Shown in pieces: positions 49,901 through 59,035 of a DNA stretch of 64,000 nt. The position numbers and the translations under genes were made by a program. The number at the start of each line of letters is the position of its first letter. Position 1 is the first letter of the stretch. The DNA comes from a virus, in the IMG/VR virus record IMGVR_UViG_3300035698_008372, positions 32,001 through 96,000 of that record. One strand, given 5' to 3'. Below the pieces are notes generated by a model. The model saw only the letters and a list, made by a program, of their open reading frames with translations. It had not been told where the DNA came from and did not search any database.

Positions 49901-49973
49901 GCGATTGAGGTGTTCAAGGGGAGCACGTCGGTATTCCATATCGAAGGAGTGGGTTCGAATCCTGCCGATCGCT
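49901..49973 (+). tRNA. Non-canonical tRNA-Gly(TCC)
   Basis: GCGATTG/CGATCGC, U73, loop ATTCCAT, TTCGAAT T-loop, A8. Confidence 0.8.
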
Positions 49974-49984
49974 CTATTAAAAAT

Positions 49985-50057
49985 GCGATTGAAGTGTAAC
50001 AGGTAAGCACGCCGACATACCATGTCGGAAGAGTGGGTTCGAGTCCTACTGATCGCT
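49985..50057 (+). tRNA. Non-canonical tRNA-Gly(ACC)
   Basis: GCGATTG/TGATCGC, U73, loop ATACCAT, TTCGAGT T-loop, A8. Confidence 0.75.
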
Positions 50058-50084
50058 CTATTAATGCAAGGAAAAAAATGTTAT

Positions 50085-51419: not shown

Positions 51420-53180
51420 ATTTATAAGTCAATTTATTTCGAAGCGGAAAAACAGAAGATTCATTTGTGGGATGATGACCGCGGCTATTTCACAATACCA
51501 TATAGACGTTATGGGTATATAAAAGATAGGGGCGGCACATATACTTCATTATATGGGGACAGGCTTAAGAAAATCCACAAGTGGGGCAAAGATTCCACTG
51601 GATTATTTGAGAGTGATGTACACCCTGAAACAAGAACATTAATTGATCTGTACACCAATGACGATGAACCATCAAAAGGTAACAAAACGATTATTATTGA
51701 TATTGAAGTCGAGGTCACAGATGGATTCCCAACTGCTACTTTGGCCGAGAATAAGGTTACGGCTATATCAATTTACGATTTTACGGATAAGAAATATTAT
51801 GGTTTGGTATTGGAAAATGGCAAGGGTATTATCAAGCCATCCACAACTCCAGAGCTTGACATTGAAGTGTTTGATATGGAAGTTGATTTGTTGAATAGAT
51901 TCATGCAGATATACCTACGCATAAAACCAACTATTATTACTGGTTGGAATGTGGATAGATTTGATGTAACATACCTATACAATAGAATGGCCGATCAGCT
52001 GGATGAAGATGTAGCCAATTGCTTGTCTCCAATCGGTGTGGTACATTGGAGTGATTTCAGGGGTAGCTACAGAATCGCTGGGGTTGCAACAATGGATTAC
52101 TTACAGTTGTATAAGAAATTTACATTTACGCAACAGGCTTCATACAGATTGGATGCGATTGCTGATTTCGAATTGGGTGAACGCAAAATTGAATATGATG
52201 GTACACTAAACGAATTATATGAAAATGACATTGAAAAATTTGTCCAATACAACATCCATGATGTTCGACTAATTGAGATGTTGGACAAGAAATTGAATTT
52301 TATAGAAATCGCTCGTGGTATTTGTCACTTGGGGCATGTTCCGTATGAAGATATTTACTATGACAGTAGATACCTAGAGGCTGCTATTCTTGTTTATCTG
52401 AAAAAATTGAACATCATCGCTCCGAATAAGCCCGAGCGTGAGGGTTGGAAGGATGAAATTGGCTTTGAGGGTGCTCACGTTCAAAAGCCCAAGAAGGGTC
52501 GTCATAATTGGGTATATGATTTGGATTTAACATCAATGTATCCAAGCATCATTATGTCGTTGAACATTTCTCCAGAGACAAAAATAGGTAAAATAGATGG
52601 GTGGGATTCCAATAAATTTGTGAAAAAAACCCCAAAAACCTATACTGTCAAATATGGTACAACCGCACTCCAATCCATGGATCAGGATGAACTACAGGTA
52701 TTTTTTGATACCAATCATGTGTCGGTATCGGCCAATGGGATATTGTACAAAACTGATAGGGATGGCCTAATCGCGTCACTCCTGAAAAAGTGGTTCGACG
52801 AACGTGTTGAATTCAGAAAATTGGCTAAGAAGTTTGCCGACGCGGGTGATAACGAGAAATATGATTATTTCAATAGACGACAACATATCCAGAAGATTCT
52901 CCTTAACTCACTTTTTGGGGCACTCGGTTTGCAGGGTTGGAGATTCCATGACGTAGACAACGCCCTTGCAGTTACATCGACGGGGGTAGAATTAATTCGA
53001 TTTTCCAAAACCATTGCAAACCATTATTACAATACTGAGCTTGGTAAAGAAATTGAACTTGAAATGGAAGATGGGTCTATCAGAAAATTATATGAAAATT
53101 GGCCAATCCATGTAAAAAGGGGTGGTAAAAAAGTTCAAATTTTAGCCAAAAATCTCAAAATAAATGATGATATTCTCTAA
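51420..53180 (+). CDS. Family B DNA polymerase, N-terminal subunit (probable ATT start), ending in a partial Hint-like tail
   Basis: Exo DIEVE, GWN..FD, YNIHD; DLTSMYPS; KILLNSLFG. Confidence 0.9.
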   Translation: MYKSIYFEAEKQKIHLWDDDRGYFTIPYRRYGYIKDRGGTYTSLYGDRLKKIHKWGKDSTGLFESDVHPETRTLIDLYTNDDEPSKGNKTIIIDIEVEVTDGFPTATLAENKVTAISIYDFTDKKYYGLVLENGKGIIKPSTTPELDIEVFDMEVDLLNRFMQIYLRIKPTIITGWNVDRFDVTYLYNRMADQLDEDVANCLSPIGVVHWSDFRGSYRIAGVATMDYLQLYKKFTFTQQASYRLDAIADFELGERKIEYDGTLNELYENDIEKFVQYNIHDVRLIEMLDKKLNFIEIARGICHLGHVPYEDIYYDSRYLEAAILVYLKKLNIIAPNKPEREGWKDEIGFEGAHVQKPKKGRHNWVYDLDLTSMYPSIIMSLNISPETKIGKIDGWDSNKFVKKTPKTYTVKYGTTALQSMDQDELQVFFDTNHVSVSANGILYKTDRDGLIASLLKKWFDERVEFRKLAKKFADAGDNEKYDYFNRRQHIQKILLNSLFGALGLQGWRFHDVDNALAVTSTGVELIRFSKTIANHYYNTELGKEIELEMEDGSIRKLYENWPIHVKRGGKKVQILAKNLKINDDIL

Positions 53181-53242
53181 GTTTATACTATTTATATACA
53201 GACACAATGTATCAATGTATAAAATATAAATTGGAGAGTAAG

Positions 53243-54082
53243 ATGAAAAAGGGGTCAGCGAGAACATTACAATATTGATTGGATAAAGGGTATAAAGGGG
53301 AAGAAGCAGAAAAAATGCGTATGAGCAGAATTCCAGGTACTATAGAATATTTTACTATATTTAAGGGGCTCCCATTGAATGAGGCCGAAATTGCGAAAGA
53401 AAATTATAACAAAAGGTCCGTTCCGACATTGGAAAATATGATACGCAAGTATGGGGAAACTGAAGGTGAAATTAGGTGGGGTGCATATCGTGAAAAACAG
53501 GCAAAATCCAATACATTTGAATATAAGCGTGATAAGTATGGTTGGACATTGGAACAATTCGATGCTTATAACAAATCAAGGGGATTGTCTGGTAAAGACA
53601 ATGGCAATTATGGGTCGAGCTATTATGAAGCTTGGGTTAAAAAGTATGGAAAAATAAAGGCCGATGAAATGAATAATGCTTTAGGTGAATTGAAAGCCAA
53701 AGGGGGGAAATCTCAAAAAGGTGTACCCAAATCATTTGTGGCTAGAAAAAATATGAGTATAGCTGCAAAGAAAAGGATAATGGATCAGGGTACTTACATT
53801 TCATATAATCCAAATTCAATTCCGATAATTGAAAAATATGGAAAAGAAAATGGATATAAATTTCAACATGCTGAAAATGGCGGCGAATATTTGGTTAGGG
53901 AAGTTTACTATTGGGTAGATGGGTATGATCATGAAAATAATGTGGTGGTTGAATATGATGAAAAATACCATGAAATGCAAACGGAAAAAGATAAAATTAG
54001 GCAACAACATATAATGGATGTGTTGGGGTGCAAATTTATAAGAATTAAAGAATCTGGAGAAATTAAGATTTATGAAAATTAA
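53243..54082 (+). mobile_element. Free-standing homing endonuclease between PolB halves; in-frame TGA at 53276
   Basis: QY[W]LDKGY; KYG repeats; QHAENGGEY..YWVDGYD..VEYDE. Confidence 0.8.
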
Positions 54083-54993
54083 AAATATAAGGGAATCAAA
54101 AGGTGTCGATGTGGATCATGTTATCTACATCGACACGTAGTGCGGATTCACTATTTATTTCGTCAACCGCGATGGTGAGCAAACGATATGGAAACAAGAA
54201 ATTCAGTGATGTCATGCTGTCACAGTACATCTTGACAATAGCTGGTGACACCCAAAAATTCATAAATAACTCGTATGACTATTTTGCCAAGAAATTCTGT
54301 AATCTTCCCGGTGCACACCGGTTTGAGATTAAACAGGAATTGATTGCAAAGTCAGCTGTATTTGTCAATGCTAAGAAAAATTATGGGTTGCGTGTTATCA
54401 ATGACAATGGTGTGAAAGTGGATAAAAATGTGTACAAAGGCTTGGCCGTAGTTCGCAGTGATTTCCCACAATCATACAGAAAATTGTTAGGTGAGGTGCT
54501 AGGTGATGTTCTAGCGGATGTTCCAAAAGATAAGATCGACGATCGTATTATTGAATACAAAAACAACATGAGATACTTGAATGTCGAAGATATCGCCAAA
54601 CCAACTGGGGTTAAGAATATCAAAAAATATTTGGTTCCACCTGGAGCGGGTGGGGGATTTTCTACTTGGAAGTCTCGTTGTCCTATCCATGTCAAATCAT
54701 CTATCATATACAATGATTTGATTAAGCATTTTGACAAACAAAAGAAGTACGCATTGATAGGGGCCGGCGACAAGGTCAAATGGGTGTACTTAAAGAAAAA
54801 TAATTTAGGATTAGAAAGTGTGGCTTATACAGGTCACGAAGACCCAAAGGAAATTATGGATTTCATATATAATTTTGTGGATAGGGATAAGATGTACGAT
54901 AGTATATTTTTGAACAAAATCACATCAATATATTCTGCCATGGACTGGTCGTTGCCCATAGATAAAAAGTTCTCGATGGACAGATTTTTTTAA
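54072..54993 (+). CDS. PolB C-terminal subunit; YIDT/DSLF motif interrupted by 7 nt (54138-54144)
   Basis: GGAG SD at 54056; YIDT*...DSLF; KKNY, KGL, C-terminal clamp-type MDRFF. Confidence 0.8.
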
Positions 54994-56697: not shown

Positions 56698-57501
56698 ATG
56701 GAAGAACAATTTGTAGACACGTCGAGGGTAGAACTTAGGATTATTACTACCGCTATAGCAAAAAGGATGATTGTAAAATACCATTACAGTCACGCATGGC
56801 CCGCATCAACTCAAGCTCCATTAGGGGTATTCTATAAGACAGGCAAGAAACATAAGTTTCTTGATGAGGATGATGAAAAATTGATTGGTTGTATTGTCTA
56901 TGGCAATCCAGTTGGTCGTAGAGCGGCCGCATCTATAGTGGATAGTGATGAGATTAACGCTCATGAAAGTGTTTATGAATTGACAAGGTTATTCATCCAT
57001 GATGGATACGGCAAGAATATTGAGAGTTATGTTATAGGTCAATCGTTCAAATGGTTGAAAGAGAATAGGCCTAAAATCAAAATGTTGATCAGTTATGCCG
57101 ACCCAGCACAGGGTCATGTTGGAGGAATCTATAAGGCCACCAACTGGGGATACCAAAGTGCGGATGATATGAAGTTGATGTTCAATTACCCAATTTCATT
57201 AACAAACGATCCTTATGATTGGATTCATAGCCGTACTGTATTTTCAAGGTACGGAGTGACTCCATATCCAACGGATGATGCAGTAGCCAAAATGAAGAAA
57301 GCGGTGGGCCAGACATTCTGGATGAAACGAGAATGTGTGAAGCATCGCTATATTCAATTCTTAGTGGACAAGAGGGAAAAACGGAAATTGATAAAATTGC
57401 TGAAGCACCCATTTCGAGACTATCCTACAACGGCCGACGACGATAGTGAAATTATTGAAGTGATAGTTGACGGGAGTGGAAAATTTGGGAAGTTCATGTA
57501 A
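56698..57501 (+). CDS. Mom-like GNAT DNA-modification protein, paralogue 1
   Basis: HYSH, LIGCIVYG, ELTRL, KNIES, ISYADPAQGHVGGIYKATNW. Confidence 0.8.
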   Translation: MEEQFVDTSRVELRIITTAIAKRMIVKYHYSHAWPASTQAPLGVFYKTGKKHKFLDEDDEKLIGCIVYGNPVGRRAAASIVDSDEINAHESVYELTRLFIHDGYGKNIESYVIGQSFKWLKENRPKIKMLISYADPAQGHVGGIYKATNWGYQSADDMKLMFNYPISLTNDPYDWIHSRTVFSRYGVTPYPTDDAVAKMKKAVGQTFWMKRECVKHRYIQFLVDKREKRKLIKLLKHPFRDYPTTADDDSEIIEVIVDGSGKFGKFM

Positions 57502-58268
57502 TGGAGAAATATACAGACATATCTAGAGTAAGTGTTCGACCAATAGATCGGACTACTGCTAAAGGTATCATTGAAAAATACCATTATAGTCATTTGATTC
57601 CAGCTACTTTACAGCTGTCATTGGGTGTATTTTATGAATCTGATGACACAGGTAAATTTTTTGATGACAATGAAAAATTGATAGGGTGCATAATGTATGG
57701 GCATCCATCTGGCAGAATGGTAGTGGATTCCATAACCGAAGGTGATTTGCTCGATCGGGAAAATATAATGGAACTTTTGAGGTTGTTTATCCATGATGGT
57801 TATGGCAAGAATATTGAGAGTTATGTAATCGGACAATCGTTCAAATGGCTCAAAATCAACAGACCAAAAGTAAAGGTGTTAATCAGCTTTTCCGACCCAG
57901 CAGAAGGTCATTTGGGTATCATATACCAATCGACCAACTGGTTGTTTCAAATGATTCCATCATCTGGTAAGTGGCAATTTTCAATGGAAAAAAACCCGTA
58001 TCATTGGGTACACCCCAGAACAATATTTGGAAGATATGGATTTTGTGGTGTGGAAGATATGAAAAAGTCATTTGATAAGAACTTCTATGCCAAGCGCCTG
58101 ACAAACAAATTTCGATATTTGTACATACTGACCAATAAATCGGAAGCTAGGAAAATCAAGAAAAATCTAATCCACGAACTACTGCCATACCCAAAGTCAA
58201 TTGATTATATGGAAGAAATAGTGGAAGTCGAAGTGAGCGGAAATTCGAAGCTCGGAAAGTTCATATAA
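57501..58268 (+). CDS. Mom-like GNAT protein, paralogue 2
   Basis: Same motifs; ISFSDPAEGHLGIIYQSTNW. Confidence 0.8.
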   Translation: MEKYTDISRVSVRPIDRTTAKGIIEKYHYSHLIPATLQLSLGVFYESDDTGKFFDDNEKLIGCIMYGHPSGRMVVDSITEGDLLDRENIMELLRLFIHDGYGKNIESYVIGQSFKWLKINRPKVKVLISFSDPAEGHLGIIYQSTNWLFQMIPSSGKWQFSMEKNPYHWVHPRTIFGRYGFCGVEDMKKSFDKNFYAKRLTNKFRYLYILTNKSEARKIKKNLIHELLPYPKSIDYMEEIVEVEVSGNSKLGKFI

Positions 58269-59035
58269 TGGAAAAATATACGGATACTTCTAGGGTCACT
58301 ATAAGGCCGATAGACAAAAAGACTGGTATTAATATGATTAAAAAATACCATTACACTCACAAAGCACCTGGTACTACTCAGGATGTGTTGGGTGTGTTTT
58401 ATAAGGGTGAAGAAGCCAACAAGTTTTTCGATGATGATGAAGTATTGATCGGGTGCATGTTATATGGTCATCCAGTTGGTAGGTGGACAATAAAATCCAT
58501 TATCGAAGATGAAAATATCAAATCCTATAATGTGTATGAATTACTGAGGTTATTTGTACACGATGGGTATGGCAAGAATATCGAAAGCTTTGTCATAGGT
58601 CAATCATTTAAGTGGCTGAAAGAGAACCGACCAGAGGTGAAAATATTGGTGAGTTATGCCGATCCTGAAGCCGGTCATGTGGGCATCATATACCAATCAA
58701 CTAACTGGATGTTCCAGATTCCAGAACCAGGTGGAGCAATGATGACTTCACTAACCAAAGACCCGTATGTATGGGTTCACCCAAGGTCAATGCACGCAAA
58801 GTTTGGTGCTTGTGGGGTGGATGGTCTCAAAGAGGCATTGGACAAACCATTCTACATGAAAAAATCACCTCCAAAATTTAGATATGTATATCTATTGACG
58901 GACAAAAGGGAGAGCAAGATATTGAAATCGAAATTCGTATATCAACAATCTCCATATCCAAAAGAGCACGATTATGTTGAAAAAGTTATTGAAATGGTGC
59001 CCAATGAAGAGAAAAAATTTAGTAAATTTATTTAA
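58268..59035 (+). CDS. Mom-like GNAT protein, paralogue 3
   Basis: Same motifs; VSYADPEAGHVGIIYQSTNW. Confidence 0.8.
   Translation: MEKYTDTSRVTIRPIDKKTGINMIKKYHYTHKAPGTTQDVLGVFYKGEEANKFFDDDEVLIGCMLYGHPVGRWTIKSIIEDENIKSYNVYELLRLFVHDGYGKNIESFVIGQSFKWLKENRPEVKILVSYADPEAGHVGIIYQSTNWMFQIPEPGGAMMTSLTKDPYVWVHPRSMHAKFGACGVDGLKEALDKPFYMKKSPPKFRYVYLLTDKRESKILKSKFVYQQSPYPKEHDYVEKVIEMVPNEEKKFSKFI

Follow-up and report, generated by a model that had tools for sequence, protein, structure and literature searches.

For over three decades, gene 60 of phage T4 has been the single known case of efficient programmed bypassing in bacteria and phages. The translational bypass in this gene is reportedly carried by a homing-endonuclease element, that of MobA (Huang et al. 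1988; Bonocora et al. 2011). Here we analyze a 7-nt, stop-containing coding gap in 43B, the downstream cistron of a split PolB gene of an uncultured, T4-like phage. The gene lies on a stretch of 64,000 nt, positions 32,001-96,000 of IMG/VR record IMGVR_UViG_3300035698_008372, which we call the window and within which all coordinates count; L- and P-numbers are labels of the loci and protein entries compared with it. Judging from the sequence comparisons presented below, the 7 nt are probably a programmed translational bypass site, in other words a 'stop-hop' site.

According to a preprint by Manning and Atkins, homologues of gene 60 occur in topoisomerase genes only, its cassette is unique, and the MobA/gene 60 element consists of a C-terminal extension (CTE), the endonuclease, an N-terminal extension (NTE), a homologous replacement segment and the gap (bioRxiv 10.1101/2022.08.31.505936). 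As in that element, an essential replication gene is split at the polB locus by a free-standing endonuclease gene, the upstream part has gained a tail and the downstream part a leader, and behind a homologous replacement segment lies an untranslatable gap with a stop directly after the take-off codon. Both systems also have RNA structure 5' of the take-off site, relatives with matched or near-matched take-off and landing triplets, and relatives that lost the endonuclease and kept the gap. In both, cassette and gap move together, MobA taking the 50-nt gap along, and the destruction of the element's own target that we propose below is the role proposed for that gap, too. The differences concern the host gene (PolB, not the large subunit of topoisomerase II), the length of the gap (5-10 nt versus 50, or 20 in one clade), the codon (Thr, not Gly GGA), the position of take-off (codon 22, not 46) and the endonuclease, which in the window is related to the 'VSR' endonucleases of Aeromonas phages and belongs to a different family than MobA. 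Since the gap has only 7 nt, it contains neither a take-off stem-loop nor an internal Shine-Dalgarno sequence. Sequence homology with the gene 60 cassette was not seen, no direct comparison having been made. As read here, the polB gap is like gene 60 in the way it works and is not a member of the gene 60 family.

The 'byp' elements of Magnusiomyces capitatus mitochondria are reportedly also short, mobile, untranslated inserts, present in large number, that are hopped over between matched codons (Lang et al. 2014; Nosek et al. 2015). They differ from the polB gap in their length of 27-55 nt, their occurrence in yeast mitochondria and the lack of an endonuclease cassette. For short tRNA hopping over stop codons in Escherichia coli, the portion of the preprint dealing with it refers to Weiss et al. 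1987, O'Connor et al. 1989 and Kane et al. 1992 (bioRxiv 10.1101/2022.08.31.505936). Hops of this kind resemble the one proposed here in being short (5 or 6 nt), in the slow codon that occupies the A site and in the frame-independent re-pairing of the peptidyl-tRNA on a similar triplet. Those sites, however, were synthetic or accidental (about 1% efficiency), whereas the polB site is natural and conserved, lies in an essential gene and is accompanied by a conserved hairpin. The organization of the locus has counterparts in the split gp43 of Aeromonas phages 25 and 44RR (Petrov et al. 2010, PMC2988022) and in 'fractured genes' with Vsr-like endonucleases (Dassa et al. 2009, PMC2677866): PolB cistrons are split at the palm with a free-standing endonuclease gene between them, whose 3' end overlaps the downstream cistron and supplies its start. 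Such loci restore the enzyme by a split intein, a group I intron or subunit association, whereas the polB gap locus has no intron or functional intein. A stop-containing mini-gap in motif C has been described for none of them, and our literature searches found no description of such polB gaps.

The coding gap in motif C of the window

The window DNA at 54126-54156 reads TAC ATC GAC ACG (TAGTGCG) GAT TCA CTA TTT. The first-pass annotation of this DNA, which had been made from the sequence alone, had described a 7-nt insertion with a stop codon inside the PolB catalytic motif and intact coding sequence on both sides, and this description held: deletion of 54138-54144 restores YIDTDSLF, the catalytic motif C. 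The zero frame before the gap, from ATG 54072, translates as MKIKNIRESKGVDVDHVIYIDT followed by the stop, and the frame after it, from GAT 54145, is open for about 282 codons, to 54993. Because CG flanks the gap on both sides, three registers of the 7 nt are equivalent; in the one used here, the elements of the junction are as follows.

54135-54137, + strand: take-off codon ACG, the Thr of YIDT and last sense codon before the in-frame stop
54138-54144, + strand: 7-nt coding gap TAGTGCG, not in 35 relatives, the same in 8 other assemblies
54138-54140, + strand: in-frame TAG, which would be the A-site stop during a hop
54142-54144, + strand: GCG, the proposed landing triplet

The sequence ...IYIDTDS... 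is uninterrupted in 35 of 35 IMG/VR relatives, the nearest of which, L003, has 85% amino acid (aa) identity over the C-terminal part. A search of IMG/VR with the exact 7-nt junction pattern gave an unrelated chance hit (L046) as the sole match. Exactly this junction, with no base changed, was found in 8 other loci (L050-L057) from ENA, JGI and Logan, which stem from different samples and assemblers, and the cluster of the window's downstream open reading frame (ORF) extends over at least 23 contigs of up to 158 kb, the index listing 37 blocks. The gap is real: identical junctions in independent assemblies far exceed chance, which excludes a one-off assembly error and leaves the collapsed assembly that the first-pass annotation had considered unsupported. 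The presence of the insertion in related phages, which it had named as a check, was seen in the 8 assemblies, and variants of the insertion occur in diverged polB genes. Reassignment of the stop codon was rejected, as reading TAG as sense leaves a frameshift.

Gap variants and the upstream hairpin

At exactly the codon boundary of the window's gap, diverged phage polB genes carry 15 distinct combinations of take-off codon and gap, with gap lengths of 5, 6, 7 and 10 nt. They are given below as take-off codon, gap and length.

ACG, TAGTGCG, 7 nt (window)
ACG, TAGTACG, 7 nt (L082)
ACG, TAGTTCG, 7 nt
ACG, TAGTTAAACG, 10 nt (L066/L067)
ACT or ACG, TGACT, 5 nt
ACT, ACG or ACC, TAACT, 5 nt
ACG, TAACC, 5 nt
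ACG, TAACA, 5 nt
ACC, TGACA, 5 nt
ACT, TAGCT, 5 nt
ACG, TAAATG, 6 nt (L070/L075/L079)
ACG, TAAATA, 6 nt (L089)

The take-off codon is ACG, ACT or ACC throughout, and in all variants the gap is preceded by 20-31 codons of a 43B cistron, the leaders being similar. In 15 of 15 variants the first codon of the gap is a stop, with TAG, TGA and TAA all being used. A search for short ORFs encoding the C-terminal part of PolB, which was performed at the protein level and put no condition on DNA or stop, found genes whose N-termini are out-of-frame readings of ..IYIDT, and there, too, the gaps begin with a stop. Two DNA pattern scans added further variants, and a scan of IMG/VR in which any gap of 1-14 nt was allowed returned stop-first polB cases and one unrelated hit, nothing else. 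The pattern hits L081, L087, L091 and L092 were discarded, as they are not polymerases. The junction of P0048, as deduced from the protein and from L068, would be ACG TGACT GAT.

The second regularity lies at the 3' end of the gap. The triplet preceding the resumed GAY is ACN (Thr) in 11 of the 15 variants, compared to 1 in 16 by chance, and its third position varies freely. The 5-nt class has the layout ACN-stop-ACN. The non-Thr triplets at this position are GCG, GCT, TCG (L048/L049), ATG and ATA, among which GCG and GCT are compatible with a G.U pair to U36 of tRNA-Thr. Within the clade of the window itself, take-off and landing triplets are matched as ACG...ACG over 7 nt in L082 and over 10 nt in L066/L067. 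From the gap of L082 that of the window differs by a single A-to-G change, which makes its take-off ACG and landing GCG unmatched and G.U-compatible. To judge from these junctions, the canonical Y(I/T)DTDS motif would be obtained in every variant only by a hop. A distant gap bearer with the junction ACT TAACT GAT is L060 (1390-4001), in which 2.6 kb with four ORFs, one of them weakly Eco57I-like, lie between 43A and 43B in place of the Vsr-like endonuclease; the GTG start of its 43B is preceded by a strong AAAGAGGTGA.

Directly upstream of the gap, the window can form an RNA hairpin.

54103-54136, + strand: RNA hairpin with a 12-bp core formed by 54105-54116 and 54123-54134, loop 54117-54122

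The fold of the window extends this hairpin to 14 bp, taking in the first two bases of the take-off codon; its z-score is -3.6, and none of 200 shuffled sequences was as stable. To survey the relatives, we folded the 66-nt stretches that precede the take-off codons. A stem of at least 12 bp with -12 to -25 kcal/mol, ending at the take-off codon or at most 2 bases from it, was found in 19 of 19 gap-bearing lineages, these being the lineages with enough sequence for folding, and a comparable hairpin was present in 0 of 18 uninterrupted relatives that served as controls. The hairpin covaries: 97.3% of the cells in an alignment of the 19 sequences are paired, three of the eight testable pairs show compensatory double changes, and the covariation score was reached by none of 500 shuffles. 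L065 (1-120), a variant of the window lineage with the same 7-nt gap, has a longer leader (..KSIKKVSVDADSSESTKDHVIYIDT) and a longer hairpin of -23.9 kcal/mol. In L061 (3247-4909; L062 is equal to it), a related endonuclease ending with ..IFSYEN and a stop is found together with a 12-bp hairpin of -15.4 kcal/mol and an intact CIYGDTDS. Two other pairings were treated as chance, as they are not conserved: a 5-bp TAGTG/CACTA pairing across the gap (54138-54153), which is absent from L048 and L066, and an outer GAAUC/GAUUC helix in the window fold, which is not kept in relatives.

The proposed hop and competing explanations

The following course of events would account for these features. Ribosomes would start at ATG 54072, translate 22 codons, thereby unwinding the hairpin of 12-14 bp, and pause with peptidyl-tRNA-Thr on ACG 54135-54137 and UAG in the A site. 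A fraction of them would then slide 7 nt forward rather than terminate. While the P site holds the take-off codon, the 3' arm of the hairpin would be inside the ribosome, and re-formation of the hairpin behind the ribosome would probably bias the movement forward, a role that has been proposed for the stem-loop 5' of the gene 60 gap, too. The anticodon of tRNA-Thr could re-pair with GCG by C-G, G-C and a G.U pair involving U36, and decoding would restart at GAT 54145, giving the motif C sequence YIDTDSLF; the hop product would yield the tryptic junction peptide GVDVDHVIYIDTDSLFISSTAMVSK. The hop that the first-pass annotation had suggested, leading from ACG across UAG to GCG in the manner of a miniature gene 60, is the best explanation on the comparative data, and the G.U re-pairing of tRNA-Thr that it had postulated at GCG gains support from the TAGTACG gap of L082. 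The gap is one part of a mobile cassette that comprises the 43A tail, the endonuclease gene, the 43B leader, the hairpin and the gap. In the cassette-bearing allele, it would destroy the target of the endonuclease, the highly conserved DTDS-coding DNA, and might in this way shield the cassette, 39 nt upstream, from its own nuclease.

A hop at this site would constitute a second, unrelated bypass family with much shorter gaps, another codon and another host gene. The natural series of 5-, 6-, 7- and 10-nt gaps with three stop codons and with cognate and near-cognate landings would make the minimal needs for take-off, sliding and landing testable. It also concerns annotation, since such polymerases are called truncated or split 'pseudogenes' in metagenomes, and it shows selfish endonuclease cassettes colonizing the most conserved DNA of an essential enzyme. 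We consider it an evenly balanced question whether hairpin-assisted, frame-independent micro-bypassing of 5-10 nt is a general, portable device by which homing-endonuclease cassettes scar their own targets in catalytic motifs of essential genes in a non-lethal manner. If so, T4 gene 60 would be one extreme member of a widespread class, and the PolB DTDS variants, at least 15 of them working, would define the minimal rules, i.e., a stop, a near-cognate landing triplet and a 5' hairpin.

Several points weigh against a hop. The landing triplet GCG of the window is non-cognate, and the TCG of L048/L049 would be mismatched (U.U) at position 1. The 6-nt variant TAAATG resembles a classical stop-start junction, and the lineage carrying it (L070/L075/L079) might really make the C-terminal part separately. 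Take-off would occur with a nascent chain of only 22 residues, and unprogrammed stop-hops in E. coli are reportedly about 1% efficient (Weiss et al. 1987). In two of the three DNA pattern scans, ATCTACA and T[AG][AG] were fixed, which narrowed the variation that they could detect. The record is about 71% complete (CheckV), which makes a second polymerase possible. Finally, the pair L061/L062, which has a split polB and an endonuclease but no gap, keeps the same hairpin, so the hairpin belongs to the cassette and not to the gap bearers alone; it may have another role or be a relic. In L061, either the gap was lost secondarily or the hairpin serves another function.

Among the competing explanations, termination followed by a restart is an unlikely one. 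It would result in a three-piece enzyme assembled from 43A, a released 22-residue peptide ending with YIDT, and a C-terminal part made separately. Synthesis of this last part would begin either by re-initiation beside the stop or at a start codon that lies farther upstream in the downstream frame, for which the window offers ATG 54109 and ATG 54118. The sequence ACG TAA ATG GAT in L070/L075/L079 is a textbook stop-start junction, the TGA gaps overlap TTG, GTG or CTG in the downstream frame, this frame is open from an ATG nine codons before GAT in the window and in L048, and two-piece split gp43 enzymes are active (PMC2988022). Many variants, however, offer no usable start, as the triplets overlapping TAA gaps are TTA, GTA and CTA and L089 has ATA. 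In addition, the downstream frame is closed upstream of GAT by a TAA in L066/L067 and by ATG-TAA in L082, which excludes upstream initiation in an alternative frame in these lineages. A restart leaves the Thr codon before GAT in 11 of 15 variants unexplained, and an active site whose two catalytic aspartates sit on separate chains, one strand of its hairpin coming from a free 22-mer, would be structurally unattractive.

We consider a programmed frameshift to be somewhat less likely still. At the 7-nt gap it would take place as a +1 shift at ACG-UAG or as a -2 shift in which ACG re-pairs on the overlapping ACA, and it would add two or three residues to motif C (T-SA-D or T-RSA-D). A shift-prone codon followed by an A-site stop corresponds to a prfB-type layout, GAC ACG permits the -2 re-pairing on ACA, and no stop closes the +1 frame in the window, L048 or L082. 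The relatives, however, would need differing shifts, namely -1 or +2 for the 5-nt gaps and none for the 6-nt gaps. As the gap lengths give three frame offsets, no single direction of frameshifting fits all variants, which argues for a frame-independent mechanism. Moreover, the +1 frame of L066/L067 holds a TAA, which excludes frameshifting in these loci, ACG is unable to re-pair at +1 (CGU), and extra residues in the DTD turn occur in 0 of 35 uninterrupted relatives.

Removal of the gap at the level of the nucleic acid is improbable. In this case the gap would be excised or edited from the mRNA, e.g., by hairpin-guided cleavage and ligation, or the sequenced DNA would not be the expressed template. 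The conserved hairpin directly adjoins the gap, and its covariation fits a hairpin used in RNA processing as well as one used by the ribosome. The stop-first rule and the Thr landing triplets, however, would be meaningless for RNA processing, and we know of no system that removes 5-10 nt from bacterial or phage mRNA. Rfam searches of 52800-54400 at E-values of up to 1, and of 53020-53300 at up to 10, detected no group I or group II intron, and 52800-54400 gave no other Rfam signal. A group I intron was rejected for this reason and because the splice-site rules are unmet at the borders of the cassette. The group II intron scar that the first-pass annotation had read from GTGCG does not fit the variants TGACT, TAACT and TAAATG, which lack this sequence. 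A dead gene or an artefact (an inactivating lesion, which that annotation had also listed, an endonuclease repair scar in a defective genome, or an assembly error) is the most improbable explanation of all, for although the gap sits at the expected cut site of a homing endonuclease and TAGTG is the reverse complement of the CACTA 6 nt downstream, a possible template-switch error, this pairing is not conserved in L048 or L066, the junction recurs in the 8 assemblies described above, ordered variants are found in lineages down to about 43% aa identity, PolB is the sole polymerase found, and the downstream ORF is intact and constrained.

The mobile cassette and its genomic context

Compared to the uninterrupted L003, whose polB ORF has 833 aa, the window contains two insertions, one of 1059 nt (53046-54104) and the 7-nt gap. 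The larger one, which lies 30 nt upstream of the coordinates considered in the first-pass annotation and was missing from it, is an endonuclease cassette consisting of the 44-codon tail of 43A, a free-standing endonuclease gene and the start of 43B. The parts of the locus are:

51420-53180, + strand: 43A, the N-terminal part of PolB with exonuclease, palm motif A and fingers (Pfam DNA_pol_B_exo1 and DNA_pol_B)
53046-53180, + strand: CTE of 43A, 44 codons (KEIELEMEDGS...KINDDIL) plus stop, the first part of the cassette
53279-54082, + strand: free-standing gene of a homing endonuclease, with 267 aa if read from TTG 53279 and 255 aa if read from ATG 53315
54072-54137, + strand: 43B leader, 22 codons, with MKIKNIRESKG as cassette-borne NTE, then VDVDHVIYIDT
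54145-54993, + strand: resumed 43B, DSLFISS..., rest of palm and thumb, ending with ..MDRFF

The cassette is mobile. In a maximum likelihood tree of the C-terminal part, the gap bearers are scattered among uninterrupted polBs. L082 and the uninterrupted L003 share 98.9% (4 kb) and 98.2% (2.5 kb) DNA identity on the two sides and differ by the cassette and a divergent tract of about 50 nt per side, the downstream one of which includes the gap; therefore, the gap moves together with the cassette. The window and L082 have 91-96% identity in the 3' end of the cassette, which comprises the endonuclease C-terminus, the 43B start, the hairpin and the gap, compared to about 78% elsewhere. In L058 and L068 the gap was kept and the endonuclease lost, and in L066/L067 the endonuclease is degraded. 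True inteins at DTD/S are present in the relatives P0063, P0064, P0066 and P0067 and in Aeromonas phage Aes144, which makes the DTDS-coding DNA a known homing target. Contigs of 20 gap-bearing lineages cover the downstream ORF, and in all of these it is intact, with 277-292 codons. The ratio of nonsynonymous to synonymous substitution rates (dN/dS) between gap bearers is 0.02-0.19, although part of this divergence may predate acquisition of the cassette.

In tblastn comparisons with the PolB of Microcystis phage Mel-JY01, 43A showed 43% identity to residues 1-553, the match ending at ..YNTELG, and the resumed 43B 38% identity to residues 565-845. The listed ORF of 43A begins at TTG 51465, whereas the conserved residues begin at ATT 51420, which is probably the true start. 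The 15 residues upstream of TTG 51465, IYKSIYFEAEKQKIH, are conserved with L003 and Mel-JY01; L003 has ATG at this position, and ATT 51420 stands about 8 nt past AGGGGA. The CTE of 43A is missing from uninterrupted relatives and is kept in shortened form in the cassette bearers L058, L066 and L068. The stretch between 43A and 43B is only about 110 nt long in L058, which indicates that the two are separate cistrons.

The endonuclease shares 48% identity over 67 aa (E-value 7e-16) with a protein annotated as 'putative VSR endonuclease' that is encoded within the split polB of Aes144, this Aes144-like module forming its N-terminal part, and it matches phrog_22677. Its residues 211-259 gave sub-threshold hits to DUF559 (19.0 bits, cut-off 20.6) and MTES_1575. 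A sequence search of the PDB gave no match to it, and its relatives in IMG/VR were limited to a single partial match, L047. The last codons of the endonuclease gene overlap the 43B start out of frame. In the 43B leader, VDVDHVIYIDT stands in place of the native TDKDYVIYIDT, and the zero frame is conserved, with synonymous changes, when compared to L048 and L066. A start of the type M/L/V-K-I-K-x-I-R/K is common to all gap-bearing lineages, and M-K-I-K-x-I-R/K also occurs in the gap-free L061.

A search of the 43A tail with Hint/intein hidden Markov models gave no hit, and a functional split intein was rejected, as there is no junction Cys or Ser and no terminal HN and the extein is complete without splicing. 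In Aes144 (L094, JN377900; 1782-4737), polB is annotated in three pieces with a split intein at YIDTD/S, and the VSR endonuclease is located between the intein halves. The 43A tail weakly resembles the N-intein end of Aes144 gp43B1 (HSVMVKRDGKIIDVKPTEMKQTDRVV). The sequences hint at a descent of the cassette from an Aes144-like split intein. In L066 (4317-6542) and L067 (5601-7880), the clamp-loader gene is also broken in two, so that a fractured gene adjoins polB; both halves gave weak Intein_splicing hits, and a TnsA-like endonuclease ORF lies between them.

The source record is a virus contig of 140,003 bp with 37.6% G+C. It contains one PolB, and a search for PolA in it found none. ARAGORN detected no tRNA-Thr gene in the record, and no dedicated hopping tRNA is evident. 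The sole tRNAs predicted are two adjoining tRNA-Gly genes with the anticodons TCC and the rare ACC (49901-50058 of the window). A DruA-like gene (PF14236; 50022-51242) is located directly upstream of polB, and the clamp-loader gene is followed at 56698-59035 by three tandem Mom-family paralogues (PF25680, from the gene tables of L050-L057).

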